Counted from the whole stretch's first letter, positions 5,525 to 56,288 are shown. The stretch: 63,907 nucleotides of DNA, filler included, from Craspedostauros australis (GCA_030167865.1; 14 parts of 14 records of this genome joined end to end with filler, not necessarily neighbours in it); one strand, 5' to 3'. Numbers and translations: made by a program. Notes: generated by a model from the letters alone, not told the origin.

Positions 5525-8114
5525 TCACTCTGTGTTGGTCTTCGTATCCTTTTCCACATTCGATGATGACACAGACGATGCTGCAGGCGGTGGTGACGCG
5601 CCCGCCATTGTTGCTGCCGTTGTTGACGATGCCATTGGGTGCCCAACCTGCCCACTCAAGCCCATGGCTATGTGCCGCTGCAATAGCTCATCGATGTGCG
5701 CCTGAGTCGCCCTATGCCTCGCCAGAGTGTTGCTGTACATGCCACGAACCTGCGGATGCTGCTGCATCAGCTTCTCAGTGTAACGAGCAAGTAGGAGATC
5801 AGCGCTCAATCCATTCGGACCAGCCTGTGCGTGCTGAAATGAGGGGTGGGTCGCACCATGAGAAGGCGATGTTGTAGCTTGCGGTCTCGAACTGGCGTTT
5901 GCTCGCGCAGCGGTTGTAGCTGATGCTGATGGAGGGACACTGGCGGAGGTCGCTTGCATCTGTTGTCTAAGCTGCTCTTGCTGCACCAAGCTGGCGAAGG
6001 CAGCGTCGAGTGAGGGAGTTCTTGGATGATTGCCTTGTAGGCTGCTCCTGGAAAAATTTGCCAAGTTGTTGGAGGAAACCGATGGCATGCCAGCCGGGAC
6101 GCCTGCTGCTCTTGCTGTAGCTGCTGCCGCCGACGATAACGCCGATGACGGGGCACCAGTTAACGGCAGCAACGATGCCAGCGATGATAATGATGCGGGA
6201 AGGAATGAAGCACCAGTGCCAGTGCTAGCACTAGCTGCAGCGTTTGGCAGGGTTGCTGCATTCGCTGCGAGCAACGACGGGGGGAATGATTGCAGCTGAG
6301 ATGGCTGGGCGAATCTTTGCAATGCAAGGCCACCGTTTAGCGTGGAAAGTTGTTCCAATATGTTCTGCTCCGTTGTCCGAAGTGGTGCTACCGCCTGGGC
6401 CGGTCGTTGTGACCGTTGCTGGAAGTCATCGCCTTTCGTTGGCGTCTTGTTGGATGCTAGAGCTTGCAGCGCTGACAAGCTGATATTCATCTTCGGTGCG
6501 CCATGAGACATGGCCGTGGCGTGACCATCCATGCCTGCTGCCACATCACCGCCACCTTCCGCACCAGCTCTAGCGGCAGTAGCCACTGAGCCCGAGCCTG
6601 TGCTCAAGGACATGTTGGTGCTGGCGTCTGCACCAGTGCACTGCGGTCTGCGATTGAGCGTGCTGATTGCGTTCGTTGCTTCATTATCTCGCTTTGCGTT
6701 CGGACTTGCACCCCGACCCGCGTCGCTTCCCATGTTTGGATTTTGTGCCAACGACTGCAAAATGGTGGCCGGCCATGGCGATGCTGCATTCGCGGTCGGC
6801 AGACCCATCAACGTTGCAATCAACGTGGGATTAGCCGCCGCCGTGCTGCTGGTTCCCAGAAGCACATCGCGGATGGTGGACATGTGGGACGCGGACGGGT
6901 TCCCCATTCGCGATGACTGCAGCATGGCCTGCCCAAGACCGATGTTGGCACTGTTGACATCCGTGCTTATTCTACTCGCACTTCCTTGGTTTTGAGAGGC
7001 GGACAGCATCCCGGGCGAGAAGGCCCCACTCAGGCCACCAGCCAATCGGTTTGGGAACACGGAGAAGTCTGGCGTCGCTTGCTGCTGTTGCAATTGTTCA
7101 TGCTGGAGGGAAGGAGGCTGTTGTTCCTGCTGCTGCTGTTGTTGCTGCTGTTGGTGGTGGTGTATGGCAGCACCGGCTTTGCCTTTTCTTGGCTTCCCAC
7201 GAAGGATGTGAGACACCTTGCCCTTCGCCAGCCGATCCGGGACCTCAACCCAGCCATCTTCCTGCGAGAGGCTGGTGACTGCCACGTCCGGCGAAAATGA
7301 CGATGAAGCCGAGAGTACCGATGCGGCTGTCGATGGTATGGCACCACCATTGCCATCTGACGAATCCCTTCGCTTCAGGAACCGACCACCCTCATCTTTG
7401 ATTTTCTGGATCATATTGGCCACGATCTGCCGTCTCCCTTCGTGTCGCTCCGCGAGGAATTGATCACGATACTCATCTGTCATTTCATGCAGACGCAGGT
7501 TGCCCGAATGTCCCTGATACGGCTTACCCCTGCCAAACAGAACTGAGGGATGGAAGGAGCGATGGTGGCGGAGAGACGCACAGGGACACAAAAGCGATGG
7601 AACGCCAAAGCGAGCGAGATAGCAAAAATGTGTGAGATGGCGATGCGTCAATGGTTGTTTGTTGTTGTTGTTGTTTTCAACGGCACAACGAAGTTGGGTG
7701 TGAATTACAGTATAGTATAGTGCAGTATAGTATAGTGCAGTATAGTATAGTAGAGTGCGTGGAGCATCGTGTGGTGATGGCGATGATGCCGTGACGTCGG
7801 ATACTACCCCAGCAGGCAGTAACGGCAACGGCAACGGCAACGGCGACAGCAATGGCAGCAGCAATTGTAGATGGACGCGGAATGAAGCCGACGCAGGTTG
7901 TCAAGGCAAACAACTCACCATCCTGAGGACCCGGCGTCGTGATGTAGGTGGCTCCCTCAATGCTGCTGCTGTCTCTGGCAGGTCGTGCGGCACCAGGTGC
8001 CGTAGATCCACGGGAGGCATTGTGATGAGGTAGGTCGTGAGTGGAGGAGTCGTCATCATCGGCATTGGTGGAGGAGTCGGTGCCATCGGTTCGTATCCTG
8101 CTCGATGAGGCCAT
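5525..8114 (-). CDS. DUF6824-domain protein with long low-complexity Q/A/S-rich tail; exons 8114-7919 and 7542-5525
   Basis: Splicing GAT G|gtgagt (7918) to ccctcag|TT (7543) gives PGPQDVLFGRGKPYQGHSGN...GGRFLKR...WVEV...KVSHILR, the diatom DUF6824 pattern. Confidence 0.85.
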
Positions 8115-11100: not shown

Positions 11101-12130
11101 GCTCCTGTGATCTCTCATGTGCCCATCGCGTCTGGTGTTTCAATGCCAGTTTCTTGGTGGCGTCAGAGTCAACAACTTCAACTCTCCGCCTCGATGAACG
11201 GAGGTGCCGGTTTTGTTGCCCCATACTTATGAGCCCGATCAGTGAGTCGACCTGCACTTTGTCATGGGACTCAATAACTTTTATCTAGTAGATCCACACC
11301 AAGCACATAGTCGTAATCCTTATAATCTTCTTACAAATAATTAACCGATCGATTTTTGTTGTATATCCTTTTTTAAGTTTTATGTACAGTCAAAGATATG
11401 CTAAAGTCCTATGAGTCGACCACATGAAACTCCTGGTTGTTTTTCAGAAGGTTCCATGCTGTTCCGAAGTATTTATCGTCGGGTGATCAGTCACGGACCT
11501 GCTCCGGAAGGAGTCGTTCGTTTGGTACACGTTAAATACACGTTAGCATCTGCGACATGATCTCGCATTTTGCTCGTCACAAAACACATCACACAAAACA
11601 CATCACACATCCAAAATCATCGCCATCCCCTCACAATTTCGCAAATCATNNNNNNNNNNNNNNNNNNNNNNNNNNNNNNNNNNNNNNNNNNNNTTAATTA
11701 ATTAANNNNNNNNNNNNNNNNNNNNNNNNNNNNNNNNNNNNNNNNNNNNTTTCGACCGTTTCACTCCAAATTGTTGTTGCTTTGTATTGGAGCGAAACCA
11801 GTCACGAGGACTCGAATGAGTCACGATCAGCAGTAAACAACAACAACCACAGAAGACTCAACGCAAAAAAAGAGAAACCAAAACACAGAAGACACAATCC
11901 ATCAAACAACACATTGGATACGAACTCATACCCAACTACCGCCACCGTTTCAATACAGACATCGAATTGCCACTCACATTCATCACACAGTGCATGGTAC
12001 TCATATTATACCAATACAAGCTATTGAAGACATACCATCGATATCTCTGCCACAGATAGCTCAGACTGCACACTTCCTTGACAGCCAATCCAACGCCAAT
12101 CGTCCAGCAACCATCGACCATCCTCTCAAA

Positions 12131-12904
12131 ATGACTCCTGTTACGAAATATCAACTCATTGCTGCTGCCCGTGCAGGTGACTTGTCGGTGTTGAAGGAAT
12201 GGAAGAAGCAGAACAAGACGCAGAATGAAGGAGTTGATGTCAACTGCCAAACCAACGATGGTTGGACTCCCCTTCATTACGCATGTCGCAACGGTCACCT
12301 GGAGTGTGTGAAGTACCTCATCGAATCATGTGAGGCGAACGTCAACTGCAAAACAAAGTATGGTTGGACTCCCCTTCATGTGGCATGCCAGAATGGCCAC
12401 CCGGAGTGTGTGAAGTACCTCATCAAATCATGTGAGGCGAACATCAACTGCAAAACAAAGTATGGTTGGACTCCCCTTCATGTGGCATGCCAGAATGGCC
12501 ACCCGGAGTGTGTGAAGTACCTCATCGAATCATGCACGGCTGACTTCAACTGCCAAACCAACGATGGTTGGACTCCCCTTCATTGGGCATGCTGCTACGG
12601 TCACCTGGAGTGTGTGGAGTACCTCATCGAATCATGTGGGGCGAACATCAACTGCCAAAACAACCATGGTTACACTCCCCTTCATCTCGCATGCCATGAC
12701 AACCAGCTGGACTGTATCGAGTCCCTCATTAGAGGACTTTCGCCTTCAGCTCACCCACAACTGCAGCAACTACAGCAACGCTTACAACAAAACGAACAAG
12801 CAAATGAACAATCACAAGAACAGTTGGGACAGCAGTTGAAACGAAAGAGCCAAAATAATGATCACAAACACAGCAGCCACAAGAGGACCAACATCAACAT
12901 TTGA
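12131..12904 (+). CDS. ankyrin-repeat protein, copy 1 (5 x 34-aa repeats plus Q-rich coiled coil)
   Basis: Repeats of G.TPLH.AC..GH.ECVKYLI.SC.A (102-bp units); ATG at 12131 aligns with the starts of the other copies. Confidence 0.85.
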   Translation: MTPVTKYQLIAAARAGDLSVLKEWKKQNKTQNEGVDVNCQTNDGWTPLHYACRNGHLECVKYLIESCEANVNCKTKYGWTPLHVACQNGHPECVKYLIKSCEANINCKTKYGWTPLHVACQNGHPECVKYLIESCTADFNCQTNDGWTPLHWACCYGHLECVEYLIESCGANINCQNNHGYTPLHLACHDNQLDCIESLIRGLSPSAHPQLQQLQQRLQQNEQANEQSQEQLGQQLKRKSQNNDHKHSSHKRTNINI

Positions 12905-13733
12905 GAAGATCGGCCATATCCTTCCAAACCGAGGACAGGACAGACTCCCTATTCTTGTGTGGACAGGGCCACGACCAGCAACTAACCAAGGCAAGCTCTA
13001 AAGTTCTCATCATCACACTCCCATCCATTCAGACACTGATCGACAAAGGAACCCAACTTCACCGCGCGAATGATGACACCGAAGACGGCGCGGCTCCATC
13101 CAAACAACCATCCCTCTTCCCCACCTCCAACCAAACCATGTCCGATACGTCCTCCAATGCATCTACACAGCCAAGATATCCTTCAATGACAGCGCTCGTG
13201 ACAACGCCGCCACTCACATCGGCGCTCACGCCAACGCTCACCACGATACAGATGCCTCTCACCAGCCAACTCCCATCCTCACTGGACAGGACGATCCGCA
13301 ACAGCTGATCCTTGTGGCCGACGAGTTTGGCTTCTGGCGACTCAAGCTTGTTCTTGAAGCAGAGTTGGCCCGCAAGCATCTCACAGAAGACAGCATGATA
13401 GATGTGTTGATATTCGCCCATCAACACAACTGCTTGGTGTTGAAGGATACCGCAATGAGAATGGCAGCTGAATATGAAGAAGATATGTTCACTCATCCAG
13501 ATTTCAGCAAGCTGATTCTACAGCCCCAACTGATGAGAGACATTCATGTCCTGTGCAGTGGGGGAGCGGAGAGTGATGGTATTGATGATGAGTATGGTGG
13601 CATGTCCATGATGGAGCTGCACAAGGTTATAGATGAGGATGAGGGCACAACACAAGTGGATTCATACATGGATCGGGTGGCATTGGTGGACTTCGTCCGC
13701 TCAATGAGAACCAGCTCTATGAGAGCCAATTGA
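12905..13733 (+). pseudogene. BTB/POZ-BACK C-terminal half of ankyrin-BTB copy 1 (disrupted)
   Basis: TDSLFLCG...IPLPHLQPNHVRYVLQCIYT...LILVADEFGFWRLKLVLEAEL...IDVLIFAHQHNCLVLKDTAM is SPOP-like BTB-BACK. Relative to copy 2 it has GGA>TGA at 12902 and two 1-nt deletions (~12915, ~13098). Confidence 0.75.
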
Positions 13734-14970
13734 TCCGAAGTGATTGTGGTGGACGGCACTGCCGAGGAAGAGGAGTGAAGTGTCAGACCATGCCATACCG
13801 TAACAGAAATCTTCCACAAGTGAACGCATGACAGAATTGAGTCGACGGATAAAAATAGTCGTCAGAATAGTCATTAGGATAGCAACTGTGTGAAAGGAGC
13901 TGGAGCAATTAGGGATCCATTCATTCAATGGTGCGTCCGGCATTCCTTCACCGTCGCCTTTGGTGATGTGCACAGCATGCTGCTCCATGCAATACCGTAT
14001 CGTTCACAGCACGGTCTGGCTGGGCCGCGAGATACGCATAATCTTCTGTGAATGAATTGCAGATGATCCCGGTTGGCGTAAGGCACGTTGCTGTGCAGCA
14101 TCATTGGCCAATGCGACAGGAAGAAGATGGTTCAGCCACCACTGTCATCGCCGTGATCGTCGTTGCCGATCATATGGTTTCCACGTTCGTTGGTTTCGTG
14201 GGTGTGGAAGGAGTTGTGTGGGAAACGACGGCGGACCCCGCGGGCGTCATGCATGGCTTGTTGGACTCGAATCCAACTTGACGAGGTGGAGCGTACTGCG
14301 ACAGTTAGCTTGTTGTTGGTGGTGGTGGTGCTGCTGCTGCAGTTTGTGCATGATGTCGCGCAAGGCACAAGCGTATATCAGGTGCTGCATGGTTTTCGAT
14401 ATGGCGGACCAAGATCACGAGCCATGGGAGAAGTTGCCGATGTCATTGCACAGGATTTCAATAATGGTGGATCCGATGAGAGCATGCCTCTGTCTCACCG
14501 TTTGCGGTTTGTGGCTGCGACGCACCGCTTTGAGCATCGGTATGAACATGCGTGGCTGGTTGTGGTACGTGTTGTGGAAACTGAGGAACGTCTCCAAACT
14601 GATGGCTCTGCAGGTCTCGGAAGAAGTCGCTGCGTCCGATCTCACGGATGCAACCATCCAACATGTGCTGAATCTCCGTTTCCGACACCGCATCGTACGT
14701 TTCTGTGGGTGCGCGCGGCTGCTGATGACTTGAATCCAGACCGCACCACAGGCCATGACATGACATGTCTTGCCATGGCTGTTGGATCTGTTGTTGGCGC
14801 TGCCATTGCCCATGTCCCAAGATATTCTCTACTCCGGAGAAGTTTGTGTGATATCATCCTTTCTGATGTCGCTGAGCGATGCGACACGTTGGAGATCGCT
14901 GTTCGTCACGGCTTGTCATTCATCATCGGCATCAGCGTCATCGTTGGCATCGTCATCGTCTCTTGCCATG
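13701..14970 (-). pseudogene. degraded unknown ORF convergent with ankyrin-BTB copy 1; part of the duplicated unit
   Basis: Several stop- and frameshift-broken minus-strand ORF pieces; homologous sequence recurs inverted at 18060-18750. Confidence 0.4.
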
Positions 14971-15712
14971 GTTGCCTTCGTTGATTCTGGTTGGTGTGTC
15001 ATGTTTTGCGCAGCCGCCACTTGCTTGATTACTCCATTGCTTCGTTGCTTCGTTTCTTTGTTGCTTGAGATTCAATGTCTCAGTGTTGGCTGATGCCTCT
15101 ATCAATGCAAACATAGTCATGCCATTTCATCTCTCTGTCTCCGGAGACTTTCATGTTGCGGGCTTCGAATTGGTGTGGCGTTGATTATGGCTGAAGTGGA
15201 GTGGTTGGAGGCACAGGTTGCACTCAAGTCGCAACACCGCTGAAACCAATGGAAACACTCAACGACCATTTCGAATCACCTTTGTGTTGTGATCAATCAA
15301 GTGTCACATTCGTCGATCTTCTTTGATGGTTTCACTCATAGTCGAATCAGTCGAAGATTCGGGTTTTCCAAGACCCACAAAAGAGAACTCTGTTGTGGTG
15401 GGAACGTGTTTCCTTCTTTCTTGTTGTCTGCGTGCATTTTTGTGATGGATGGGGACAGAAGGATCCAAACCATGTGATCAAGAGGAGGCAAACACAGACA
15501 TCAACACACACCACCCAACCCCATACTCGGGCACATCAACAACAGACATCGGATTGTCTCTCATATTCATGACACAGTGCATGGTACTCATACCAATACA
15601 AGCTGTTGAAGACACACCATCGATATCTCTGCCATCGACAGCTCGAACTGCACACTTCCTCGACAGCCAATCCAACGTCAATCGTCTAGCAACCACCGAC
15701 CATCCTCTCAAA

Positions 15713-16255
15713 ATGCCGAATGTCACAGACCAACAACTCATTCATGCTGCCATTTCAGGTGACTTGTCGGTGTTGAAGGAATGGAAGAAGCAGAACAAGA
15801 CGCAGAATGAAGGAGTTGATGTCACCAAGGTTAAAGACTGGCTTGGTCAGACTCCCCTTCATTGGGCATGCCGCGGCGGCCACCTGGAGTGTGTCAAGTA
15901 TCTCATCGAATCATGTGGGGCAAACATCAACTGCAAAGACAACGATGGTTGGACTCCTCTTTATGTGGCATGCATGTTCAACCACCCGGAGTGTGTGAAG
16001 TACCTCATCGAATCAGGTGGGGCGAACATCAACTGCAAAACAAAGTATGGTGACACTCCCCTTCATTATGCATGCGACAACGGCCAACTGGAGTGTTTGG
16101 AGTCCCTCATCAGAGGACTTTCGCCTTCAGCTCACCCACAACTGCAGCAACTACAGCAACGCTTACAACAAAACGAGCAAGAGAATGAACACAAACACAG
16201 TACCCACAAGAGGACCAACGTCAGCATTGGAGAAGACCGACTCAAATCCTTCTAA
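15713..16255 (+). CDS. ankyrin-repeat protein, copy 2 (3 repeats plus coiled coil)
   Basis: MPNVTDQQLIHAAISGDL... followed by three TPL(H/Y) ankyrin repeats; ends at an in-frame TAA just before the BTB domain. Confidence 0.85.
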   Translation: MPNVTDQQLIHAAISGDLSVLKEWKKQNKTQNEGVDVTKVKDWLGQTPLHWACRGGHLECVKYLIESCGANINCKDNDGWTPLYVACMFNHPECVKYLIESGGANINCKTKYGDTPLHYACDNGQLECLESLIRGLSPSAHPQLQQLQQRLQQNEQENEHKHSTHKRTNVSIGEDRLKSF

Positions 16256-16560
16256 ACCGAGAACAGGACAGACACCATCTTCTTGTGTGGACAGGGCGAC
16301 CAACAACAACCAATCAAGACAAATGCCGAAGCCCTTATGATCACCGTTCCATCCATTCAGACACTGATCGACAAAGCAATCCGACATCAGCATGCAAATG
16401 ATGGCGCTGAAGACGGCACGGCCCCCATGGAAGTAACCATCCCTCTTCCCAACCTTCAAGCAAAACACATCCGATATATCCTCCAATGCATCTACACAGG
16501 CAAGATATCCTTCAACAACAACACTCATGACGACACCGATGATGATGACGCAAACCAGCA
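16256..16560 (+). pseudogene. BTB domain of copy 2, in frame behind a TAA, truncated and fused to unrelated sequence
   Basis: TENRTDTIFLCGQG...IPLPNLQAKHIRYILQCIYTGKISF; similarity to copies 1 and 3 is lost after ~16560. Confidence 0.7.
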
Positions 16561-17387
16561 TCTCTTCATGCAATGCAAACTCTGTTCGATGATGGCAATG
16601 GCGATGGTGACCACTCCAACATCACCACATCCCTTCACATTGATACCCTCAACGCAAACACCAACACAAGCAATCAGACGAGATGATGAGGCATCAACAT
16701 CCAAGAGGAACTGTGGGAAGGCTCACCAGTTTCTCTGCACCTTCACCCACCCGTTGTACGACTATGAGAATGGAACCTCCCATGAGTACGATCTACTCTG
16801 GGAGTTGCCACAGCCAAACGGGCAGCCTGATACTCTGTTCGAACCTTTGTGCGGGCATGAGGTCATGACGATCGAAGTTGCTGGAAGAGGACGATGTCAG
16901 ACCACCGGGTCCGTGTGCTGCCGTGGGAAGCACGCCTGCACACATCTGCACCCATATACACACATTGTCAGCATCCCATACTCGTAAAACTGGCAGAACA
17001 CAACAGTCTCAAACTCGACATCGCGTAGTGCAGCGACAGGCTGTGAGGATCGCAACATCCTGTGTGTGTGAGCATCAAGGTTGCGAAGTTGCTGAAACAA
17101 GTTCTGCCAATGACGTACGACGCCGCATTTCTCAGCATCTATTGCATCGACCAACCGCAACAACAGGTCCGGCGCGAATGAAGCTGGCGCCACTGAATCC
17201 CTTCTTGAATCAACACCCAACTGCAACAGACGAAGCTGATGCCAGCACCTACGGCAGGGTGGGAATCCAGTGGTTGAACGAAGAAGAACCCGATGTAGTA
17301 AGTGGGCCAAAGGTGTCTGGAGGTATATGTAATAGTAGTCTACGATCACACATACAAGTACGAGTACTCTCCAGAGAGCAGAATCTA

Positions 17388-17948
17388 TCATAGTATCCTG
17401 CACTGCGAATGAATCGATGAATCACCCCCTATTTGAAAGATCCAGGTCTTGACGGCACCCGCAGTCTCCATTGCATTCGATACCTCCTGTGCCTTGTCTG
17501 CGGAACACCAAGCAACGCCACATCCACCACCACCGGAACCCACGATCTTGAAACCCCACGCTCCCGTATGCAGGGCTGCGGTGCGCATATCCTCAATGCG
17601 AGGCGTCGACAACTGCAATCCATCCCGCAACGCACAATGATGCACGTCCATCAGCTTGGCGAGTTGCCGACCGCTGCCGGTTGCGTTGGACATCCACAGT
17701 TTCGCGGCTTCCGCTTCCACATCGCGATTCGTGCGCGTCGCCTGCAACAGCGTGCGTTCGGTTTCGTCCAGATCCGCGTCCTGCGTATCCCAATCACCAT
17801 GCAGCTTGGTCGCGTACAGTTCCAACCGATCGTACTTGCAGCGTTTGAGATGCCGCATCGTGTCCTTGGGCTGGCCCGAGTCCCCCAGCACCCACGCGCC
17901 ATCGACGGGCGGCAACTTCACGACGGCGTCCGGAGCAATACGCAGACA
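17388..17948 (-). CDS. GHMP kinase (galactokinase-like), C-terminal part; 5' end in gap
   Basis: LAKLMDVHHCALRDGLQLSTPRIE...GAWGFKIVGSGGGGCGVAW matches the GHMP kinase C-terminal motif. Confidence 0.85.
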   Translation of the reverse strand, partial: CLRIAPDAVVKLPPVDGAWVLGDSGQPKDTMRHLKRCKYDRLELYATKLHGDWDTQDADLDETERTLLQATRTNRDVEAEAAKLWMSNATGSGRQLAKLMDVHHCALRDGLQLSTPRIEDMRTAALHTGAWGFKIVGSGGGGCGVAWCSADKAQEVSNAMETAGAVKTWIFQIGGDSSIHSQCRIL

Positions 17949-18702
17949 NNNNNNNNNNNNNNNNNNNNNNNNNNNNNNNNNNNNNNNNNNNNTTAATTAA
18001 TTAANNNNNNNNNNNNNNNNNNNNNNNNNNNNNNNNNNNNNNNNNNNNATTGCTCGTCAGCTTTGTCGGCCATACCTATCGAAAGCCATGCAACCGCTGG
18101 CATACGCTTGTGCCCTGCGCGACATCATGCACAAACTGCAGCAGCGCCACCACCACCAACAACAAGCTGACAGCCGTAGTACATCCCGCTCCGTCACGTT
18201 GGATTCGATTCCTACAAGCCATGCATGATGCCCGCGGGGTCCACCATCGTTTCCCACAAAAACTCCGCTCACATCATCGACACCAACGAACGCGGAAACC
18301 ATACTATATGATCAGCAACGACGATCACGACGATGACAGCAGAGGCTGAACCATCTTCTTCATGTCACATTGGCCAATGATGATGCACAGCAGCGTGCCA
18401 TACGCCAACCGGGATCATCTGCAATTCATGCACAGAAGACCATGCATATCTCGCGGCCCAGCCAGACCGCGCTCCAAACGATACAGGAGTGCAGGGAGCA
18501 GCATGCTGTGCACATCACCGAAGGCGACGATGAAGGCATGCCGGACGCACCATTGAATGAATGGATCCCTAATTGCTCCACCTCCTTTCACATAGTTACT
18601 ATCCTAATGACTATTCTGACGACTATTTTTATCCATCAACTCAATTCCGTCATGCGTCCGCTTCTTGAAAACTTCTGGTATGGCATGGTCTGGTCTGGCA
18701 AT

Positions 18703-19581
18703 TCAACCCTCTTCTTCAGCAGCACCGTCCGTCTCAATCACTTTGGATGATTTGGTAGTCATAGAGCGGACGAAGTCCACCAATGTCACCCAATCCATGT
18801 ATGAATCCACTTGCGCGATCCCCTCGTCTTCACCCACAACTTTGTACAGGTCCATCATGGACATACGAGTGCACTCATCATCAATACCATCACTCTCCGC
18901 TCCCCCATTGTGGAGGATATGAATGCCTCCCATCAGTTGAGGTTGTAGAATCAGTTTGCTTGAATCTAGATGAGTGAACGTATCCTTCTCACTTTCAGGT
19001 GCCACTCTCATCGCCATATCCTTCAACACCATGCAGTTGTGCTGATGAGCGAATATCAACACATCTATCATGGTGTCCTCTGTGAGATGCTTGTGCGCTA
19101 GCTCTGATTCAAGAACAAGCTTGAGTTGCCAGAAGCCGCACTTGTTGGCCACAAGGATCAGCTGTTGCAGATCATCCTGTCCAGTGAGGATGGGAGTTGG
19201 CTGGTGAGAGGCATCTGTATCGTGGTGAGCGGCGGCGTTGTCACGAGGGCTGTCATTGAGGATATCTCGCCTGTGTAGATGCATTGGAGGACGTGTCGGA
19301 CGTGTTTTGGTTGAAGATTGGGAAGAGGAATGGTTGTGTGGATGCGTTCAGTTCTATCGTGAGCGCCATCGTGAACGCATTGATGTTGGATTCCTTTGTC
19401 GATCAGTGTCTCAATGGATGGGATGGTGATCATCAGGACTTCGGCGTTTGTCTTGATTGGTTGCTGTTAGTTGCCCTGTCCACACAAGAAGATGGTGTCT
19501 GCCCTGTTCCCAGTTTAGAAGGATTTGGGTCGGTCTTCTCCAATGCTGACGTTGGTCCTCTTGTGGCTGCTGTGCTTGTGT
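18703..19581 (-). pseudogene. BTB/POZ-BACK half of ankyrin-BTB copy 3 (disrupted)
   Basis: IPLPNLQPKHVRHVLQCIYTGEI and LILVANKCGFWQLKLVLESEL...VLIFAHQHNCMVLKD; +1 insertion near 19590, TAA at 19515-19517 and ~19467, 1-nt deletion ~19260. Confidence 0.75.
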
Positions 19582-20598
19582 TCATTCTTTTTGCCTCTTT
19601 CGTTTCAACTGCTGTCCCAACTGTTCTTGTGGCTGTTCATTTGCTCGCTCGTTTTGTTGTAAGCGCTGTTGTAGTTGTTGTAGTTGTTGTAGTTGTGGGT
19701 GAGCTGAAGGCGAAAGTCCTCTGATGAGGGACTCCATACACTCCAGGTGGCCGTTGTAGCATGCCTCATGAAGGGGAGTGTCGCCATTGTTGTTTTGGCA
19801 GTTGATGTTCGCTCCACCTGATTTGGTGAGGTACTCCACACACTCCAGGTGGTCTTTGTCGCATGCCTTATGAAGGGGAGTGTCACCATAGTAGTTTTGG
19901 CAGTTGACGTTTGCTCCACCTGATTCGATGAGGTACACCACACACTCCAGGTGGCCATTGTTGCATGCGTCATGAAGGGGAGTGTAACCAAGGTTGGCTT
20001 TGCAGTTGGCGTCAGCCCTGCATGATTTGATGAGGTACTTCACACACTCCAGGTGGCCATTGTTGCATGCGCCATGAAGGGGAGTGTGACCACACATGTC
20101 TTTGCAGTTGACGTCAGCCCCGCATGATTTGATGAGGTACTCCACACGCTCCAGGTGGCCATTGTTGCATGCGCCATGAAGGGGAGTGTGACCAAACATG
20201 TCTTTGCAGTTGACGTCAGCCCCACATGATTTGATGAGGTACTCCACACGCTCCAGGTGGCCATTGTTGCATGCGTCATGAAGGGGAGTGTGACCAAACA
20301 TGTCTTTGCAGTTGACGTCAGCCCCGCATGATTTGATGAGGTACTCCACACGCTCCAGGTGGCCATTGTTGCATGCGCCATGAAGGGGAGTGTAACCAAA
20401 CATGTCTTTGCAGTTGACGTCAGCCCCACATGATTTGATGAGGTACTCGCCATGAAGGGGAGTGTGACCAAACATGTCTTGGCGGTTGATGTCAACTCCT
20501 TCATTCTGCATCTGGTTCTGCTTCTTCCATTCCTTCAACACCGACAAGTCACCTGCTATGGCAGCATCAATGAGTTGTTGGTCTGTGACATTCGGCAT
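19582..20598 (-). CDS. ankyrin-repeat protein, copy 3 (8 repeats, first with in-frame 10-aa deletion)
   Basis: Tandem 102-bp units VNCKDMFG(H/Y)TPLH.ACNNGHLE.VEYLIKSCGAD. Confidence 0.85.
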   Translation of the reverse strand: MPNVTDQQLIDAAIAGDLSVLKEWKKQNQMQNEGVDINRQDMFGHTPLHGEYLIKSCGADVNCKDMFGYTPLHGACNNGHLERVEYLIKSCGADVNCKDMFGHTPLHDACNNGHLERVEYLIKSCGADVNCKDMFGHTPLHGACNNGHLERVEYLIKSCGADVNCKDMCGHTPLHGACNNGHLECVKYLIKSCRADANCKANLGYTPLHDACNNGHLECVVYLIESGGANVNCQNYYGDTPLHKACDKDHLECVEYLTKSGGANINCQNNNGDTPLHEACYNGHLECMESLIRGLSPSAHPQLQQLQQLQQRLQQNERANEQPQEQLGQQLKRKRQKE

Positions 20599-21224
20599 GT
20601 TGAGAGGATGGTCGATGGTTGCTGGACGATCAACGTTGGACGTTGGATGATTGGTGTTGGATTGGCTGTCGAGGAAGTGTGTGGTCTGAGCTATCTACTA
20701 TGAGGCAGAGATATTGATGGTGTGTCTTCAATAGCTTGTATCAGTATGAGTACCATGCACCGCGTGATGAATAGTAGTATGAGTGGCAATTCGGTGCTTG
20801 TTGTTGATGTGCTCGAGTATGGGGTTGAGTGGTGTGTGTTGTTGTCTTGTTCGCACGCGTCCTCTCTTTCTCTCTTTGTGCACAAGCATCGTCGTGTTTG
20901 CCTCCTTCTCTTGATCGCACCCCTCTCTGGTTCGTGCGGCTTGGATCCTCCGGGACACCCGGCAAAATGGGTCGAATTAGTCTATCTTGGAGGCTACTGA
21001 CCCAGCCAATCAAAACTCGTTGTTTTTGCGATGACAAAAGATCCCACAAGAGGAATGTTCTCGAATCAAATTTTCGTTCTCAGGAACTCTTTGAAGGTCA
21101 TAGCTTCCAGTGTTATTTATGGGTAGTTCATGGAGAAACTCCGAAAATGACTCTGCAATACTGTGTCTTGATTAAATCCCGACCAGTCGTGCGAAAACCG
21201 AACCCTTGATTTAAATAGCCGCCC

Positions 21225-21300: not shown

Positions 21301-21418
21301 ATCAATCCATTGTCTTCANNNNNNNNNNNNNNNNNNNNNNNNNNNNNNNNNNNNNNNNNNNNTTAATTAATTAANNNNNNNNNNNNNNNNNNNNNNNNNN
21401 NNNNNNNNNNNNNNNNNN

Positions 21419-21800
21419 GCGCGCTCGTTGGGTTGCTTGTTGGGTTGTTTGTCAGCGTGCTTGTGGGCGCGCTTGTTGGGTTGTTTATCAGCGTGCTTGT
21501 GGGCGCGCTTGATGGGTTGCTTGTTGGGTTGTTTGTCAGCTTGTTTGTGGGCGCGCTTGATGGGTTGCTTGTTGGGTTGCTTGTCAGCTTGTTTGTGGGC
21601 GCGCTTGATGGGTTGCTTGTTGGGTTGTTTGTCAGCTTGCTTGTGGGCGTGCTTGTTGGGCTGCTTGTCGGGTTTCTTGTCGAGTTGTTTGTCAGCATGC
21701 TTGTGGGCGCGCTCGTTGGGTTGTTTGTTGGGTTGCTTGTTGGGTTGTTTGTCAGCGTGCTTGTGGGCGCGCTTGTTGGGTTGCTGACTGGTGCGGCGGT
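21419..21800 (-). repeat. coding PT/S/N-rich tandem repeats (PTSNPSSAPTNKLTNN), mucin-like stalk
   Basis: 36/48-bp tandem units of gttgggttgcttgttgggttgtttgtcagc type. Confidence 0.85.
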
Positions 21801-24800
21801 GACTGGCAAAGCCGTGGGGAAAGGCACCGGACCAGTCGTTGGCTGGCAATCTCTGATCTGGGTCGTCTCGGATGATTGGAATTCTCCTCCAGACTTTTGC
21901 AACACGCCGTCGACGAAGATCTTGTATGATCCCTTCCCGACCTCGCAGCAGATTCCGTCACCATATGTGTCAACAATCATCATACTCAAGCAGGCAGACT
22001 TGGAGACGCATATCTCCTTGGTGTAGAGCTGGATGGTGTTGTCGGCAAACGGGCCATCTTGGAGGAGGACGTCGTCTCCATTCTTCAGCTCCCAGGTGGT
22101 TTCGGATCCGAAGTAATCTGTCAGTAGTTCCACGCGGACCATGGACTCATCGGATGCACAGGCATTCAAGTTACAATCTCCGACCAGGATCGTCTCAGTT
22201 GTTCCGAATTCTCCTCCAGTTATCTGCACCATGCCATCGACGATAATCCTGTAGGATCCCCTACCGAAGCTGCAGCAGATTCCGTTGCCAATTGTGTCAG
22301 CAATCGTCATGCTCAAGCAGGCAGACTTGGAGACGCATATCTCCTTGGTGTAGAGCTGCTGAACGAAGTTGTCGGCAAACGGACCATCTTGGAGGAGGAC
22401 GGTGTCTCCATTCTTCAGCTCCCAGGTGGTTTGGGATCCGTAGTAATCTGCCAATAGTTCCACGCGGACCATGGACTCATCGGATGCACAGGCACTCGAG
22501 TTGCTTCCAACTGCAGGTGCCGAAGTGGGGCTGCAATTTCCGATCTGGGTCGTCTCAATTGTTTCGAATTCTCCTCCAGACATCTGCACCACGCCATCGA
22601 CGAAGATCTTGTATGATCCCCCACCTTTGCTGCAGCAGATTCCGTCACCATATGTGTCAGCAATCGTCATGCTCAAGCAGGCAGACTTGGAGACGCATAT
22701 CTCCTTGGTGTAGAGCTGGAAAATGAAGTTGGGAAACGGGCCATCTTGGAGGAGGATGTTGTCTCTACTCTTCAGCTCCCAGGTGGTTTCTGATCCGCGG
22801 TAATCTGTCAGTAGTTCCACGCGGACCATGGACTCATCGGATGCACAGGCACTCGAGTTGCTTCCGACTGTAGGTGCCGAAGTGGGGCTGCAATTTCCGA
22901 TCTGGGTCGTCTCACTTGTTTCGAATTCTCTTCCATACTTCTGCCGGACGCCGTCGACGAAGATCTGGTATGAACCATATCCTCCTGAGCAGCAGATTCC
23001 GTCACCATATGTGTCAACAATCGTCATGCTCAAGCAGACAAACTTGGGGACGCACATCTCCTTGGTGTAGCGCCGACGAAAGAAGTCGACGAACGGGCCA
23101 TCTTGGAGGAGGACGTCGTCTCCATTCTTCAGCTCCCAGGTGGTTTCGGATCCGTAGTTATCTGTCGATAGTTCCACGCGGACCATGGACTCATCGGATG
23201 CACAGGCATTCAAGTTACAATCTCCGATCTGGGTGGTCTCAGTTCTTCCGAAGTCTCCTCCATACTTCTGCACCATGCCATCGACGATAATCCTGTAATA
23301 TCCATCACCGTAGCTGCAACAAATTCCGTTCCAACCGAAGTCAGCAATCGTCATGCTCAAGCAGGCAGACTTGGAGACACATACCTCCTTGGTGTAGAGC
23401 TGAAAATTGTTGCCAAACGGGCCATCTTGGAGGAGGACGGTGTCTCCATCCTTCAGCTCCCAGGTGGTTTCGGATCCGTACCTATCTGTCAGTAGTTCCA
23501 CGCGGACCATGGACTCATCGGATGCACAGGCACTCGAGTTGCTTGCAACTGTAGGTGCAGAAGTGGGGCTGCAATCCCCGATCTGGGTCGTCTCACTTGT
23601 TCCGAATTCTCCTCCAGACTTCTGCTCGACGCCGTCGATGAAGATCTTGTATGATCCCTTTCCGTTGGTGCAGCAGATTCCGTTGCGACCTGTGTCAGCA
23701 ATCGTCATGCTCAAGCAGGCAGACTTGGAGACGCATATCTCCTTGGTGTAGTGCTTGCTGGTGAACTGGGCAAACGGGCCATCTTGGAGGAGGACACTGT
23801 CTCCATTCTTCAGCTCCCAGGTGGTTTCTGATCCGCGGTAATCTGTCAGTAGTTGCACGCGGACCATGGACTCATCGGATGCACAGCCATTCGAGTCACA
23901 ATCTCCAATCTGGGTCGTCTCGGATGATTCGAATTCTCCTCCAGACTTCTGCTCGACGCCATCGACGAAGATCTTGTATGATCCCGAACCTTCACTGCAG
24001 CAGATTCCGTCACCATATGTGTCAAAAATCGTCATATTCAAGCAGGCAGACTTGGAGACGCACATCTCCTTGGTGTGGACCTCGATGGTGATGTCGGCAA
24101 ACGGACCATCTTGGAGGAGGACGGTGTCTCCATCCCTCAGCACCCAGGTGGTTTCGGATCCGTAGTTATCTGTGAGTAGTTCCACGCGGACCATGGACTC
24201 ATCGGATGCACAGGCACTCGAGTTGCTTCCGACTGTAGGTGCCGAAGTGGGGCTGCAATCTCCGATCTGGGTCGTCTCACTTGTTTCGAATTCTCCTCCA
24301 GACTTCTGCTCGACGCCGTCGACGAAGATCTTGTATGATCCCTTTCCGTTGGTGCAGCAGATTCCGTTGCCAATTGTGTCAACAATCGTCATGTTCAAGC
24401 AGGCAGACTTGGAGACGCATACCTCCTTGGCGTGGACCTGGATGGGGCTGTTGTCAAACCAGCGATCTTGGAGGGGGCCATCTTGGAGGAGGACGGTGTC
24501 TCCATCCTTCAGCTCCCAGATAGTTTGGGATCCGTAGTAATCTGGCAGTAGTTGCACGCGGACCATGGACTCGTCGGATGCACAAGCATTCAAGTTACAA
24601 TCTCCGATCTGGGTGGTCTCAGTTCTTCCGAAGTCTCCTCCAAACTTCTGCACCACGCGATCGACGATAATCCTGTAATAACCATTGCCTCCTGAGCAGC
24701 AGATTCCGTCACCATATGTGTCAACAATCGTCATGCTCAAGCAGGCAGACTTGGAGACGCATATCTCCTTGGTGTAGAGCTGGAAAATGAAGTTGGGAAA

Positions 24801-27480
24801 CGGGCCATCTTGGAGGAGGACGTCGACTCCATTCTTCAGCTCCCAGGTAGTTTCGGATCCGTACCTATCTGTCAGTAGTTCCACGCGGACCATGGACTCA
24901 TCGGATGCACATGCATTTGAGGTGCTTGCAACTGTAGGTGCCGAAGTGGGGCTGCAATCTCCGATCTGGGTGGTCTCACTTGTTTCGAATTCTCCTCCAA
25001 ACTTCTGCAACACGCCGTCGACGATAATCCTGTAAGATCCGTAACCTATTGAACAGCAGATTCCGTCACCATATGTGTCAGCAATCGTCATGCTCAAGCA
25101 GGCAGACTTGGAGACGCATACCTCCTTGGTGTAGAGCTGGAAAATGTTGTCGATAAACGGCCCATCTTGGAGGAGGACGTTGTCTCCATTCTTCAGCTCC
25201 CAGGTGGTTTCGGATCCGTACCTATCTGTCCATAGTTCCACGCGGACCATGGACTCATCGGATGCACATGCATTTGAGGTGCTTCCATCTGTAGGTGCCG
25301 AAGTGGCGTGGCTTGGTGGGTTGCTTGGTGGGTTGTTTGTCAGCTTGCTTGTGGGCGCGCTTGTTGGGTTGCTGACTGGTGCGGCGGTGACTGGCAAAGC
25401 AGTGGGGAAAGGCACCGGAGCAGTCGTTGGTTCTGGACTCTGGCAATCTCCGATCTGGGTCGTTTCAGTTGTTGCAAATGCTCCGACAAACACTTCCGGT
25501 ATGCCGTCAACAATAATCCTGTAGGATCCATATCCTCCTGAGCAGCAGATTCCGTCACCATATGTGTCAACAATCGTCATACTCAAGCAGGCAGACTTGG
25601 AGACGCATATCTCCTTGGCGTAGAGCTTGCTGATGTGGTCGATAAACGGTCCATCTTGGAGGAGGACGTTGTCTCCATTCTTCAGCTCCCAGGTGGTTTC
25701 GGATCCGTAGTTATCTGTCAGTATTTGTACGCGGACCATGGACTCATCGGATGCACAGGCATTCGAGGTGCTTCCATCTGTAGGTGCCGAAGTGGGGTTG
25801 CTTGTAGGTGCGCTTGTTGGGTTGCTGATTGGCTTGCTTGTGGGTGTGCTTGTTGGGTTGCTTGTTGGACTGCTGACTGGTGCGGCGGTGACTGGCGCTG
25901 CGCTGGAGGCAAGAACTCGAGCGGCTGTCGTTGTGGGACCGCCGCCACCGCAGGTTCCAACGTCGAACTCTTCACTGTTCTGGAACGCTCCGCCGGACTT
26001 GATCTTAACTCCTGCACGGGAAACCTCGTACATTCCCTGGCCCCACCCACAGCACATGCCGTCGCCTTCCACATCTGCAATCTCAAACTTCACGCAGCTG
26101 TTGGGAGACACGCACAGCTTGGACTCGAACGATGTCAGCTTCTCATCGGCACCGTATGGTCCACCAGTCTGGGCAACCTGCGAGTCCACAGTCAGCTTCC
26201 ATGTTGTTTCGGCTGGGTAGTTGTCTGTCCTCACGAAGACCTCAACTAGTTCCAATCCATTCTCGCAATCTGGGACAGGCGCTGGTGTCGGAGACAGCCC
26301 CCCGCTGCATCCAGCACCTTCGCAACGGAATGTCATGTACTCGCCCGAGTTGCTGATCTCCGTAATCTTGAGGCCCGTCGGGTTGATGTTTCCATTCTGG
26401 TAACTGTCCGTGTTGGGGTGCTTGTTGGCCCCGATGTTGGGATCGTTGGACGGCAGGAGTTTGGTGACGCCGCGGCCGTGGAAGACATCGTTGGCATCGC
26501 CGTTGTTCTTCTCTTGCTCGAGATCGTATTGGCCATCTGCCTGCACCATCGCGATTCGGTAATGTTTGTTGTTTGTTGGCCAACCGGCCTGTCCTGGCCA
26601 GCCCTGGTCGTGCGGTTCCGCCTTCTTCTCGTCGATATGCCAGATGCAGAGACCGGCCTGTGGCATATTCTTGTCAGACTCGAGCTGTTGGCGGTTCTCA
26701 ATCAGGAGGTACCTGCATCAAGGAGAGTTCGAAGGCATGTGGAGAATTGTACAAAAGTGTGAATGTGATTGAGGCTGTGAGCGTGCATGTACTTGAGCAT
26801 CGACAGACCACAATTTGGGGAGGACAATTCGAAATATGAATCATAGCATGACATGGCAGTGCAATGAGGCGCACTTACTCTCCGGCTGGGTAGCCACCCT
26901 CGCCGTCTCCGATCTTGTAGATATCTCTGTTGGTTTGAACCGCCGTGATGGGGTTGACACCCTCACCGGGACGCTTGGGCGTGACCCAGTTCAGCGTGAC
27001 CTTCGACCAAGCGGATGGGTGTGGCGGATGATACTGGTCGCCTTCGAATCCCCAGCTGTTCGCCATGAGACCGAACGATCCGATGCCGCTGCCGTCATCG
27101 CCGTAATCATACAGATCTGGCAAGCCAAGGAAGTGCGCCATCTCGTGCGTGATCACGCCAACACGTCCGATCGCAGTTCCGGACGTGCTCCACAAACCAG
27201 GATTCGCGTGGTAGTCCTGGATCTCCACGTTGTCCCAGCTCGTGAACTTGTTGGTGAGGCTCCACTGGTGTGACCAGATGCGGTCCTTCTGGGCAGCGCC
27301 GAATCCATCCGGGTCCGAATCCGATTCGGCACCGTATCCCGAATGGATGATGGTGAAACCGTCGATCCAGCCATCACCGTCAGCATCAAACTGCTTGAAG
27401 TCGAGGTTCTGGCCATTCAATATGTTCAGCGCATCTGTGATGCAGTCATGAATCACGGAGGTACCGCCGCTGCTGTTGTC
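21419..27480 (-). CDS. M6-family (immune inhibitor A-like) metalloprotease with 12 Cys-rich repeat domains and PT-rich stalk; exons >27480-26879 and 26712-<21419; both ends in gaps
   Basis: FDADGDGWIDGFTIIHSGYGAE, IWSHQW, HEMAHFLGLPDLYD, GIGSFGLMANSW and SAWSKVTLNW are M6 motifs. Intron GA|gtaagt (26878) to tgcag|G (26713) restores EYLLIENRQ. Then 1 divergent and 11 near-identical CASDESMVRV...DGICC domains. Confidence 0.93.
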
Positions 27481-55200: not shown

Positions 55201-56288
55201 GACAGTACACTGCACCACCTATCTGAACAAGGTGCTCCAGAAGCATGGATGGCAAGATCTGCGGTCGTCGCAACGACTCCCCATGCGCGCGGACAACGGG
55301 TACATTCGACAACTGGACAGTGCGGACGTCCCAGCTACTGAAGGCGAGCGGCAACAACTACAGACATCGTTCTTCAGTTATCGGCAGGCCATTGGTGAAC
55401 TAATTTGGGCCATGGTTTCATGCCGTCCGGACATATCATTCCCCGTGGTGAAGCTCAGCCAGTTTTCCATCAACCCAGCCAAGATCCATTATGAGGCGGT
55501 CAAGTACCTCTTCCGATACATTGCTGCCACAAGGGAACTTGGAATCACGTACTGGCGGCCATCGCCCCTGCCCGAACTTCCAGTCATCCCCGTGCCGCTG
55601 CCCCTTTCACCACCTGAGGACGTTTCGCACAACGTGGACAATCATGAGACAGTCCGATTCTCCACGGTCTATGGATACGTGGACGCCAACTGGGGCTCCA
55701 ATATTTGCCATCGGCGCTCGGTCACCGGCATCATGTTCATGTTCGGCGGCGCTGCCGTCGCGTGGAAGACTCGTGTTCAGCCGACCGTGTCCCTCAGCAG
55801 CTCCGAAGCCGAGTTTGTCGCTGCCAGCGATGCTGGTCGCATGGCTCTGTGGCTTCGTTCCATCCTCGATGAGATCGGGGTGTCGCAGCAACACGCCACT
55901 CTCATTTTCGAGGACAATCGAGGAGCACGCATGATGGCCAACGCAAGTCAGCCTACACGGAATTCGAGACATATTGATATCCGAACCTTCGCGGTCAGTG
56001 ACTGGGTGGATCGGGATCTTATTCTTATCGAGGACGTCGCATCCGATCTCAACGCAGCGGATGCATGCACCAAACAGACGCCGTCGGTTCTCTTTTTCCG
56101 CCATACTGACTTGATAATGGGTCGCTTCCGCCCGTCTTTCGCTCAAGACCATGATGGGCGTCGCTCGGTCAGAGCAATTTTTCCCGCTGGAAATCTTCCA
56201 GCGTGGGGGGGTGTTGGCATACGTACGCAGGACAGACGTCCGCAGCCTCCGCCTCTGAAGAGTGACAACGGAGACAGTCTCCTCCCAT
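52199..56288 (+). CDS. pol: pol polyprotein (protease, GAG-pre-integrase, integrase, PDZ-like insert, RT, RNase H) in the -1 frame
   Basis: CDIGAN, LWHMRLGHP...CETC, FHADFG/VDTGGEL/NGKVERLNR, KARAVCDG, ADVANAF, RQVDDF, YVDANW, SSSEAEF, FEDNRG, ADACTK. Confidence 0.93.
56212..56288 (+). repeat. 3' LTR (truncated by gap)
   Basis: Identical to 50222-50298. Confidence 0.92.

Follow-up and report, generated by a model that had tools for sequence, protein, structure and literature searches.

The 63.9-kb stretch of DNA analysed here (the window) carries three disrupted copies of a gene whose protein would join ankyrin repeats (ANK) to a BTB domain and a BACK region. We think it probable, though well short of certain, that these are three recently disabled paralogues of a diatom-lineage ANK-BTB-BACK family, that its intact members are Cullin-3 substrate adaptors, and that the family turns over by birth and death. 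The protein would run from an N-terminal cap (N-cap) through a variable number of 34-amino-acid ankyrin repeats, a glutamine-rich (Q-rich) linker, a BTB domain, and a SPOP-type BACK region to a C-terminal tail. This build would resemble that of SPOP and the plant BPM proteins, with an ankyrin array replacing the MATH domain. The BTB-BACK part would dimerise and dock Cullin-3, and the concave ankyrin surface would select the target. The data show that the family evolves through duplication, through the gain and loss of 102-nt repeats in register, and, it appears, through exchange between members, and that members die by nonsense mutation, 1-nt frameshift, or truncation. The original prediction, which was made from the DNA alone, had proposed such a fast-evolving adaptor family. 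At the level of the family, that interpretation is largely supported, and the observation behind it is real.

The window consists of 14 short contigs of draft sequence, with 13 identical joints (N44-TTAATTAATTAA-N44) between them and single Ns scattered throughout. Copies 1 and 2 lie on the plus strand of contig A (11750-17948, 6.2 kb), and copy 3 lies on the minus strand of contig B (18049-21318, 3.3 kb). The original prediction had treated 11920-20860 as one stretch. It does hold three copies, but they are not contiguous, as the finding spans two artificially joined contigs. Because copy 3 sits on a separate contig and the joints are artificial, its order and inverted placement are meaningless.

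A three-way DNA alignment and blastn identified three homologous units in the window, with ATG start codons at 12131 (+), 15713 (+), and 20598 (-) for copies 1, 2, and 3. Copies 1 and 3 match from about 175 nt before the start codon to at least 650 nt past the stop (11960-14425 versus 20796-18049), and the match stops where contig B ends. Copy 2 matches the other copies only over 15488-16538. The three copies have a 5' leader of about 175-240 nt in common, in which 27 of 166 three-way columns vary (counted over the copy 1 leader). The leader is not consistently coding, and the intact relatives described below begin at the MPNV/MTPV methionine. The alignment and blastn thus bear out the proposal that the copies share a leader, an N-cap, and a Q-rich linker. 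The translations show 5, 3, and 8 ankyrin repeats in copies 1, 2, and 3, as had been predicted. They also contain every repeat motif that had been quoted: QTNDGW, KTKYGW, KDWLGQ, KDMFGH, KANLGY, and QNYYGD; LH followed by Y, V, W, L, G, D, K, or E; and AC followed by RN, QN, CY, HD, RG, MF, DK, or YN.

The identity of the repeats is clear, as all three ANK-bearing open reading frames (ORFs) match Pfam's Ank_2 above the curated cut-off. The period is strictly 102 nt, or 34 amino acids, versus the usual 33. AlphaFold2 modelled the ANK part of copy 1 as an N-cap and five helix pairs, with a predicted local distance difference test (pLDDT) score of 85-98 over residues 1-200. It modelled the Q-rich linker of copy 1 as a single helix (residues 209-246) at low confidence (pLDDT of 56-63). 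Since this helix has a low pLDDT, and since intact relatives that are more distant do not have a Q-rich linker, the label "coiled coil" that had been given to the linker is unverified. We also noticed that the repeat unit mostly keeps cysteines at positions 0, 13, 20, and 28 (in 14, 15, 12, and 9 of the 15 full repeats, respectively).

Intact members of the family exist outside the window. We used HMMER to compare the longest clean piece of the window copies (13098-13730) to 1.84 billion representatives and found 92 proteins with E ≤ 1e-3, of which 17 reached 1e-10 and 8 reached 1e-30. Intact proteins with the same build as the window copies and 457-607 amino acids are among them; for instance, P0001 matches a window copy with E = 6e-47 and 48% identity. 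Another relative, the 3'-partial P0096, is open over 366 residues and shares 87% identity with copy 1 over 178 amino acids. P0096 has just one ankyrin repeat, which is a hybrid of the start of the first repeat and the end of the C-terminal cap (C-cap); in-register recombination seems to have removed the internal repeats. Further open fragments are 67-71% identical to the C-terminal part of copy 1 (P0004, P0094, and P0095) or show 64-67% identity (P0097 and P0098). Overall, the window copies are 41-87% identical to intact relatives. More distant intact relatives have 3 to 7 repeats (as counted from stretches of Pfam Ank matches), so the family is multicopy with a variable repeat number, both in the window and beyond it.

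Nine of the relatives (P0096, P0002, P0005, P0007, P0013, P0016, P0042, P0097, and P0098) are in MMETSP, EukProt, or UniRef records from the raphid pennate diatom Craspedostauros australis; these records are transcriptome-derived. The remaining relatives are from JGI/IMG records. These transcript-derived open frames show that the same species, or one closely related to it, has intact and transcribed members of the family. The proposal of birth and death is supported as far as death is concerned, which is seen in all three window copies; intact expressed members were found elsewhere, so the outcome that the original prediction had named as refuting it was not obtained. In the databases, the relatives have automatic names only, such as "BTB domain-containing protein." When we searched with the ANK part instead, we obtained 1436 matches at E ≤ 1e-20, which were mostly generic ankyrin proteins, and P0096 was the sole true close relative. 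Two scans of metagenome contigs and one of viral contigs gave pattern matches, none of which was confirmed as a relative. Separately, two distant intact members (P0002 and P0003) have at their C-terminal end a hydrophobic stretch and then basic residues, which looks like a tail-anchor membrane segment; this ending is absent from the window copies and from P0001.

We also examined one public run that contains the stretch (X1, whose type, RNA or DNA, is not on record). Of its 30,610 contigs, 1132 align to contig A at 90% identity or above and 216 at 99% or above, and 253 fit two places. Because 1132 contigs align to contig A, the family exists in many sequence variants. Contig depth in X1 is a measure of neither copy number nor expression level, and we used only the count of aligned contigs; we drew nothing from the summed depth (1476-13493 in the family bins and 24-146 in the flanks) or from the two uncovered bins (11750-11956 and 15062-15268). 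The lesion sites described below are unreadable in X1 because the contigs from paralogues are clipped there.

The BTB domain is recognized in the intact relatives. Pfam's BTB model (PF00651) has a gathering cut-off of 20.5 bits, and P0001, P0002, and P0003 score 28.9, 24.0, and 25.1 bits, over positions 4-109 of the 110-position profile. Five more relatives join ANK and BTB (P0005, 33.0 bits; P0007, 34.4; P0008, 29.8; P0011, 28.0; and P0013, 32.1). We modelled the C-terminal 261 residues of P0001, which is a relative and not a window protein, with AlphaFold2 (pLDDT of 83 and predicted template modelling score, or pTM, of 0.79). According to Foldseek, the best match to this model in the Protein Data Bank (PDB) is the BTB domain of human SPOP (4j8z; E = 2.5e-7; TM score of 0.80, normalised to the target). 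The entries 8dwv and 3hqi are also among the best matches, and full-length SPOP aligns to the model over 196-207 columns. Lower matches include KEAP1, KLHL3/Cul3, vaccinia A55 BTB-BACK/Cul3, KLHL11, and KBTBD2-CUL3. The sequence identity of the model to SPOP is only 15-16%. The family profile matches residues 234-353 of SPOP (E = 3.8e-4), and after the ANK-BTB proteins, SPOP/BPM-type MATH-BTB proteins are the next sequence relatives (8 of the 19 matches scanned). No MATH domain was found by Pfam in the window copies or in any of the eight ANK-BTB relatives, which have ankyrin repeats in its place.

As for BACK, the BACK and BACK_BPM_SPOP models (PF07707 and PF24570) match the window fragments and P0002-P0004 below threshold (E of 0.004-0.19, over the first 20-45 profile positions). 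The fold alignments to full-length SPOP and to the BTB-BACK part of KLHL11 extend past the BTB domain (182-207 columns). Because the profile matches are subthreshold, the BACK label rests on these fold alignments. A protein atlas also contains a diatom BTB / BACK_BPM_SPOP cluster (score 0.91), which we treat as a lead only.

From the fold and the family only, we infer, with good grounds, that intact members recruit Cullin-3: the nearest folds include structures that were solved with CUL3 (4hxi, 6i2m, and 8h36). We also considered that these proteins might not be Cullin-3 adaptors. The BTB-BACK part might only oligomerise or act as a scaffold, as in some transcription regulators or in proteins like NPR1 or BTBD11, with the ankyrin repeats binding a conserved partner. 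BTB domains do have many roles outside of ubiquitin ligases (PMC1257465), and NPR1 is among the fold matches. However, the closest relatives by sequence and fold are Cullin-3 adaptors (SPOP/BPM, KLHL, and KBTBD), several of them solved with CUL3, and the family has a BTB domain followed by a BACK/3-box region, as used by those adaptors. Furthermore, a hypervariable binding surface argues against a single conserved partner. We consider a pure scaffold unlikely, and we prefer Cullin-3 adaptors.

The binding surface is where the repeats vary. Variation had been placed in the beta-turn and the first helix, and both the amino-acid entropy and the counts of changes agree. Across the 15 full repeats of the three genes, entropy is highest at positions 2, 3, 4, 6, 11, 14, and 15 of the unit, and G, TPL, and AC are invariant. 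Using a tree of these repeats and parsimony, we counted 117 non-synonymous changes, of which 64 lie in just 8 of the 34 codons (the expected share is 0.26; p = 3e-11). These hypervariable codons had 64 non-synonymous and 5 synonymous changes, versus 53 and 19 at the other 26 codons. Relative to the overall synonymous rate, their non-synonymous rate is higher by a factor of 2.75 (p = 6e-6), or of 3.34 with a tree of framework codons alone (p = 7e-9); across repeat sets and trees, the ratio ranges from 2.75 to 3.97 (p = 6e-6 to 5e-8). Since the eight positions were picked from the data, we ran the test again on a set fixed a priori, namely the six positions at which designed ankyrin repeat proteins (DARPins) are randomised; we take these to be positions 1, 3, 4, 6, 14, and 15 of the unit. 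The ratio was 2.45-3.0 (p = 2e-4 to 5e-6). The framework codons are nearly neutral (ratio of 0.75-0.85). These counts show that the target-binding positions diversified faster than synonymous sites, so that, in this small sample, the binding codons did not evolve neutrally.

None of the three copies reads through. Together they have five in-frame stops and four 1-nt frameshifts. Copy 1 has two stops and two frameshifts: besides the in-frame TGA listed in Table 1, it has 1-nt deletions at about 12913-12916 and 13093-13097, and a premature TGA (13731-13733) lies 15 codons ahead of the ancestral stop (13776-13778). Copy 2 has one stop and is truncated in the middle of BTB, at 16538, so that the distal part of BTB and the BACK region are missing. 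Copy 3 has two stops, two frameshifts (a +1 insertion at about 19586-19590 and a 1-nt deletion at about 19258-19262), and a 30-nt deletion in the first repeat. One of its stops (TAA, 19515-19517) is common with copy 2, and the other is a second CAA-to-TAA change (19467-19469); P0096 has glutamine at both of these sites. The intact relatives are colinear through every break, and copy 1 has to be read in three successive frames to match P0096. Our reading is that the three copies look like recent pseudogenes: they kept a function during part of their divergence, and their death is recent.

Several other causes of the broken frames were considered and rejected. Introns do not account for the changes of frame, since P0096 and P0004 are colinear through the breaks, which are 1-nt differences between paralogues; the other two copies do not conserve the candidate GT..AG intron of copy 2. 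An alternative genetic code, with TAA and TAG read as glutamine, is inconsistent with the TGA stops and frameshifts of copy 1, with a 1767-codon ORF of the window that is open under the standard code, and with transcript-derived P0096, which carries glutamine at both TAA sites. Finally, transition:transversion counts (48:45, 98:65, and 41:28) are unremarkable, so we rejected a C-to-T bias of the kind caused by repeat-induced point mutation (RIP).

The stops and frameshifts might instead be errors in a draft assembly of a highly repeated family, with all three loci intact and functional. The contigs are short (6.2 and 3.3 kb) with single Ns nearby, dN/dS (the ratio of non-synonymous to synonymous divergence) outside the repeats is below neutral for two of the three pairs of copies, and run X1 has 216 contigs that match the stretch at 99% or above. 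But all five stops are single-base substitutions relative to the paralogues, within about 1400 codons, and errors of this kind would be unusual. Also, the four single-base indels lie outside long homopolymers; a 30-nt deletion and the loss of the whole distal half of copy 2 would need explaining; and the identical TAA is found on two independent contigs. We rate assembly error as the cause of all the lesions as distinctly unlikely, and we continue to regard the copies as pseudogenes.

Outside the repeats, the copies differ with dN/dS of 0.43-0.61 by the NG86 method (dS of 0.25-0.30 and dN of 0.11-0.16). In a neutral simulation with the observed transition/transversion ratio, the expected dN/dS is 0.71-0.78. 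Constraint is detected between copies 1 and 3 (p = 0.005) and between copies 2 and 3 (p = 0.03), and is not detectable between copies 1 and 2 (p = 0.16). Divergence at four-fold sites (0.09-0.15) and in the flanks (K of 0.09-0.18) agree on the neutral level. These results also bear on the idea that the family is a dead or dying repeat that evolves neutrally and has no present function in the organism. That idea fits with the disruption of all three window copies and with the ratio of 0.75-0.85 at the framework codons of the repeats. However, relatives with open frames are present in transcriptome-derived records (P0096 at 87% identity, and P0097 and P0098 at 64-67%), dN/dS is below neutral in two pairs, and neutral decay cannot give a non-synonymous rate above the synonymous rate at the binding codons. 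A family without function is very improbable, and recent death of copies of a living family explains the data better.

Repeats have been gained recently. In copy 3, repeats 2 to 5 differ by just 1-7 of 102 nt; in copy 1, repeats 2 and 3 differ by 7 nt and repeats 1 and 4 by 8 nt. Very recent duplication of repeats is evident in both copies. We also noticed that two islands of DNA, of 65-75 nt each, bracket the ankyrin array and are near-identical in the three copies (12174-12237 and 12722-12795 in copy 1). Only 6 of 138 three-way columns vary in the islands, versus 105 of 392 in other coding sequence (p = 1e-9), and this extends to third codon positions (4 of 45 vary, versus 40 of 131 elsewhere; p = 0.003). 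The islands may be anchors for recombination between family members. Furthermore, the lineage with the most changes differs between segments (chi-square p = 0.006). As the islands were picked after seeing the data and there are only three sequences, we treat the signal of exchange as a lead and not as a result.

This signal suggests another explanation, in which the pseudogenes are a reservoir of ankyrin cassettes: the arrays between the islands would be swapped by gene conversion or unequal recombination, which would create combinatorial surfaces on a constant BTB-BACK part. The near-invariance of the islands (even at third positions), the shift of the most-changed lineage between segments, the TAA that copies 2 and 3 share beside signs of constraint, the hybrid repeat of P0096, and contigs of run X1 that join copy-1-like and copy-2-like parts in other registers would all fit. 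On the other hand, the islands, besides being chosen post hoc, encode conserved segments of the protein; the mosaic signal from three sequences is weak and could reflect differences in rate; no sign of directed or somatic exchange was seen; and ordinary ectopic recombination would leave equal traces in any family that is tandem or multicopy. We give the cassette reservoir only a slim chance. In a bolder form, the family would be a natural DARPin-like library, with arrays shuffled between genes and pseudogene donors so as to renew a germline set of Cullin-3 adaptors that mark foreign proteins, from viruses, parasites, or transposons, for degradation. This too is a long shot; if true, it would be a new type of intracellular immune-receptor family in a major algal group. 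We prefer ordinary birth and death, with recombination between members.

A number of observations weigh against this preferred explanation or limit it. The window's own fragments score 16.0, 17.9, or 18.7 bits against Pfam BTB, or do not match, and so are below the cut-off, because frameshifts divide the domain in copies 1 and 3 and copy 2 has lost its distal part. BACK is above its cut-off in P0012 only (26.2 bits) and subthreshold elsewhere. So of the predicted BTB-BACK module, BTB stands in the intact relatives (three of three pass) and in the fold match to SPOP, it does not stand on the window's own fragments, and BACK is mostly subthreshold; the assignment of the window copies to BTB-BACK is provisional, being based on homology to intact relatives and on the predicted fold of one of them. 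The non-ligase roles of BTB domains, which we mentioned above, count here as well. Variable beta-turn and first-helix positions are typical of ankyrin proteins in general. If the hypervariable codons are compared to their own synonymous changes only, then dN/dS is 1.95 (p = 0.09), and the selection test as a whole counts changes by parsimony on a weak tree of 15 short repeats, with recombination among them left out of account. Outside the repeats, how strong the constraint looks depends on the neutral yardstick, because K in the flanks is near dN and below the NG86 estimate of dS. Copies 2 and 3 share a stop yet have dN/dS below neutral, which is a poor fit to descent from a dead ancestor; this combination points to gene conversion or another exchange, a parallel CAA-to-TAA mutation, or a stop that was tolerated. 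Lastly, the lesions were read from the assembly alone, and some of the frameshifts could be errors in the draft contigs.

The features of the three copies are listed in Table 1. Homology searches of the 63.9-kb window, including blastn, found no family copy beyond these three. The 3' flanks of copies 1 and 3 are about 87% identical (K = 0.135). On the opposite strand, both carry ORFs that resemble each other (13701-13988 (-) and 18370-18750 (+)), with a hydrophobic stretch and no Pfam match, which could be a small co-duplicated gene or just flank. No transposon domain or other Pfam domain was found in the ORFs that flank the copies. We rejected carriage by a transposon and origin as processed pseudogenes, since the flanks lack transposon domains and the homology of copies 1 and 3 continues for at least 650 nt past the stop. 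For the same reasons, the duplicated unit is a gene with its flanks and not a mobile element.

Table 1. Features of the three ANK-BTB-BACK copies and of the contig joints. Positions are counted from the first letter of the window.
Feature	Position	Strand	Remarks
Artificial contig joint (N44-TTAATTAATTAA-N44)	11650-11749		Same joints at 17949-18048, 21319-21418, and ten more places
Copy 1, shared non-coding 5' leader	11955-12130	+	Homologous to copy 2 (from 15542) and copy 3 (up to 20796)
Copy 1, start codon and N-cap helix pair	12131-12244	+	Helices 6-15 and 18-30 in the model; contains island 12174-12237
Copy 1, five ankyrin repeats of 102 nt	12245-12754	+	Ank_2, E = 1.8e-69; pLDDT 85-98
Copy 1, Q-rich linker	12755-12901	+	Start overlapped by near-invariant island 12722-12795
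Copy 1, in-frame TGA	12902-12904	+	GGA in copies 2 and 3
Copy 1, N-terminal half of BTB, second frame	12916-13094	+	Residues 103-188 of P0096 align in frame 1
Copy 1, distal BTB, BACK-like helices, and C-terminal tail, third frame	13098-13730	+	87% identical to P0096 over 178 amino acids
Copy 1, 3' flank	13779-14425	+	Common with copy 3 (18049-18702); no recognised domain
Copy 2, shared 5' leader	15488-15712	+	Alignment, blastn
Copy 2, N-cap, three ankyrin repeats (15830-16135), and linker	15713-16252	+	Ank_2, E = 2.4e-55; linker with 54-nt in-frame deletion
Copy 2, in-frame TAA	16253-16255	+	Same codon as in copy 3; CAA in copy 1, Q in P0096
Copy 2, N-terminal part of BTB only	16256-16538	+	BTB, 18.7 bits, below cut-off; homology ends at 16538
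Copy 3, 3' flank	18049-18702	-	Homologous to copy 1 flank; reaches contig end
Copy 3, distal BTB, BACK-like region, and tail	18703-19281	-	Stop at 18703-18705; reached only past 1-nt deletion
Copy 3, end of linker and N-terminal half of BTB	19263-19586	-	Frame comparison, alignment
Copy 3, start codon, N-cap, eight ankyrin repeats (19699-20484), and Q-rich linker	19587-20598	-	Ank_2, E = 1.3e-97
Copy 3, shared 5' leader	20599-20854	-	Alignment, blastn

Other parts of the window have recognizable features as well. A fragment of a GHMP-kinase C-terminal domain (17388-17921 (-), E = 9e-12) lies at the end of contig A and adjoins the truncated copy 2. The 1767-codon open frame (21363-26666 (-)) runs into a contig joint; it contains about 12 tandem cysteine-rich repeats of about 140 amino acids each, with spacers rich in proline, threonine, and serine between them, and its Pfam matches are weak only (DUF2677 and microprotein). 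A 779-codon ORF (5525-7864 (-)) has a DUF6824 domain (E = 3e-15). On other contigs, there are parts of a Copia-type retrotransposon (52199-56288 (+): gag-pre-integrase, an SH3-like domain, and RVT_2) and a copia-type gag (61577-62412 (-)).

The value of these sequences is in the family and not in these loci, since the three window copies are broken. Diatoms, which are major primary producers, have many viruses and parasites, and we know of almost no intracellular immune receptors that have been described in diatoms. A hypervariable family of adaptors would be a concrete candidate for a diatom immune receptor that can be tested. A role in defence against viruses or transposons, as in the original prediction, is speculation; the targets might be viral, transposon-derived, gametic, or housekeeping proteins.

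We found no published description of a diatom ANK-BTB family in full-text literature searches. Among known proteins, SPOP and the plant BPM proteins have a similar layout: an N-terminal recognition domain, then BTB, then a short BACK/3-box. They are also the best match of the fold (in the PDB) and of the family profile, and MATH-BTB proteins are the nearest relatives after ANK-BTB proteins. The diatom family differs in lacking MATH and having 1-8 ankyrin repeats and a Q-rich linker instead, and its BTB domain has a variable insertion between the N-terminal and middle parts. Because MATH was tested for and is absent, the diatom family is not a member of the MATH-BTB family.

The expansions of MATH-BTB proteins in Caenorhabditis and in grasses are also lineage-specific sets of BTB adaptors, with a fast-changing binding domain and many pseudogenes. 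Thomas (2006) reportedly proposed that the expanded MATH-BTB families reflect adaptive evolution in an arms race with pathogens. The MATH-BTB proteins of nematodes and grasses, as Cullin-3 adaptors with fast-evolving recognition domains, have been proposed to take part in host-pathogen conflict. The diatom family points to a parallel case with a different and more modular recognition domain. In rice, there are 69 MATH-BTB genes and 41 pseudogenes, of which more than half are transcribed (PMC4091423). In the diatom family, the variable domain is ankyrin, diversity comes from repeat number as well as from point changes in the binding surface, and the host is a diatom.

ANK and BTB are also combined in Btb1-3p of Schizosaccharomyces pombe, in the plant proteins NPR1 and BOP, and in the animal proteins ABTB and BTBD11. 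The S. pombe proteins bind Pcu3p, which is the Cul3 homologue (PMC1257465). These proteins have another order or another type of BTB: NPR1 has its BTB domain at the N terminus with ANK after it, and others have two BTB domains or 19 repeats. None of them is reported as a hypervariable multicopy family. In our fold search, NPR1 was only at rank 18, with a root-mean-square deviation (rmsd) of 16.7.

Seminavis robusta, which is also a raphid pennate benthic diatom, has expanded BTB/POZ families, some with a high ratio of non-synonymous to synonymous polymorphism (piN/piS), and these were tied to expression during sexual reproduction and not to defence (PMC7335047). A bias towards sexual reproduction is thus a published alternative to defence for expanded BTB/POZ families in diatoms. 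The portion of PMC7335047 that treats these families does not mention ankyrin repeats, and they may differ from the family described here.

In poxviruses, as in the diatom family, a repeat domain is fused to a module that docks to a cullin, in the ANK/PRANC proteins and in BTB-Kelch proteins such as vaccinia A55, whose structure with CUL3 (6i2m) is among our fold matches. The poxvirus adaptors are viral proteins that hijack the ligases of the host, and they combine ANK with an F-box-like domain, or BTB with Kelch.

Finally, DARPins have a constant framework, diversity at positions of the beta-turn and first helix, and a number of repeats that varies between caps. The diatom family has the same three properties and would be a natural counterpart of these engineered ankyrin binders. 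It differs in being natural, in its unit of 34 amino acids with four conserved cysteines per repeat, and in its fusion to BTB-BACK.

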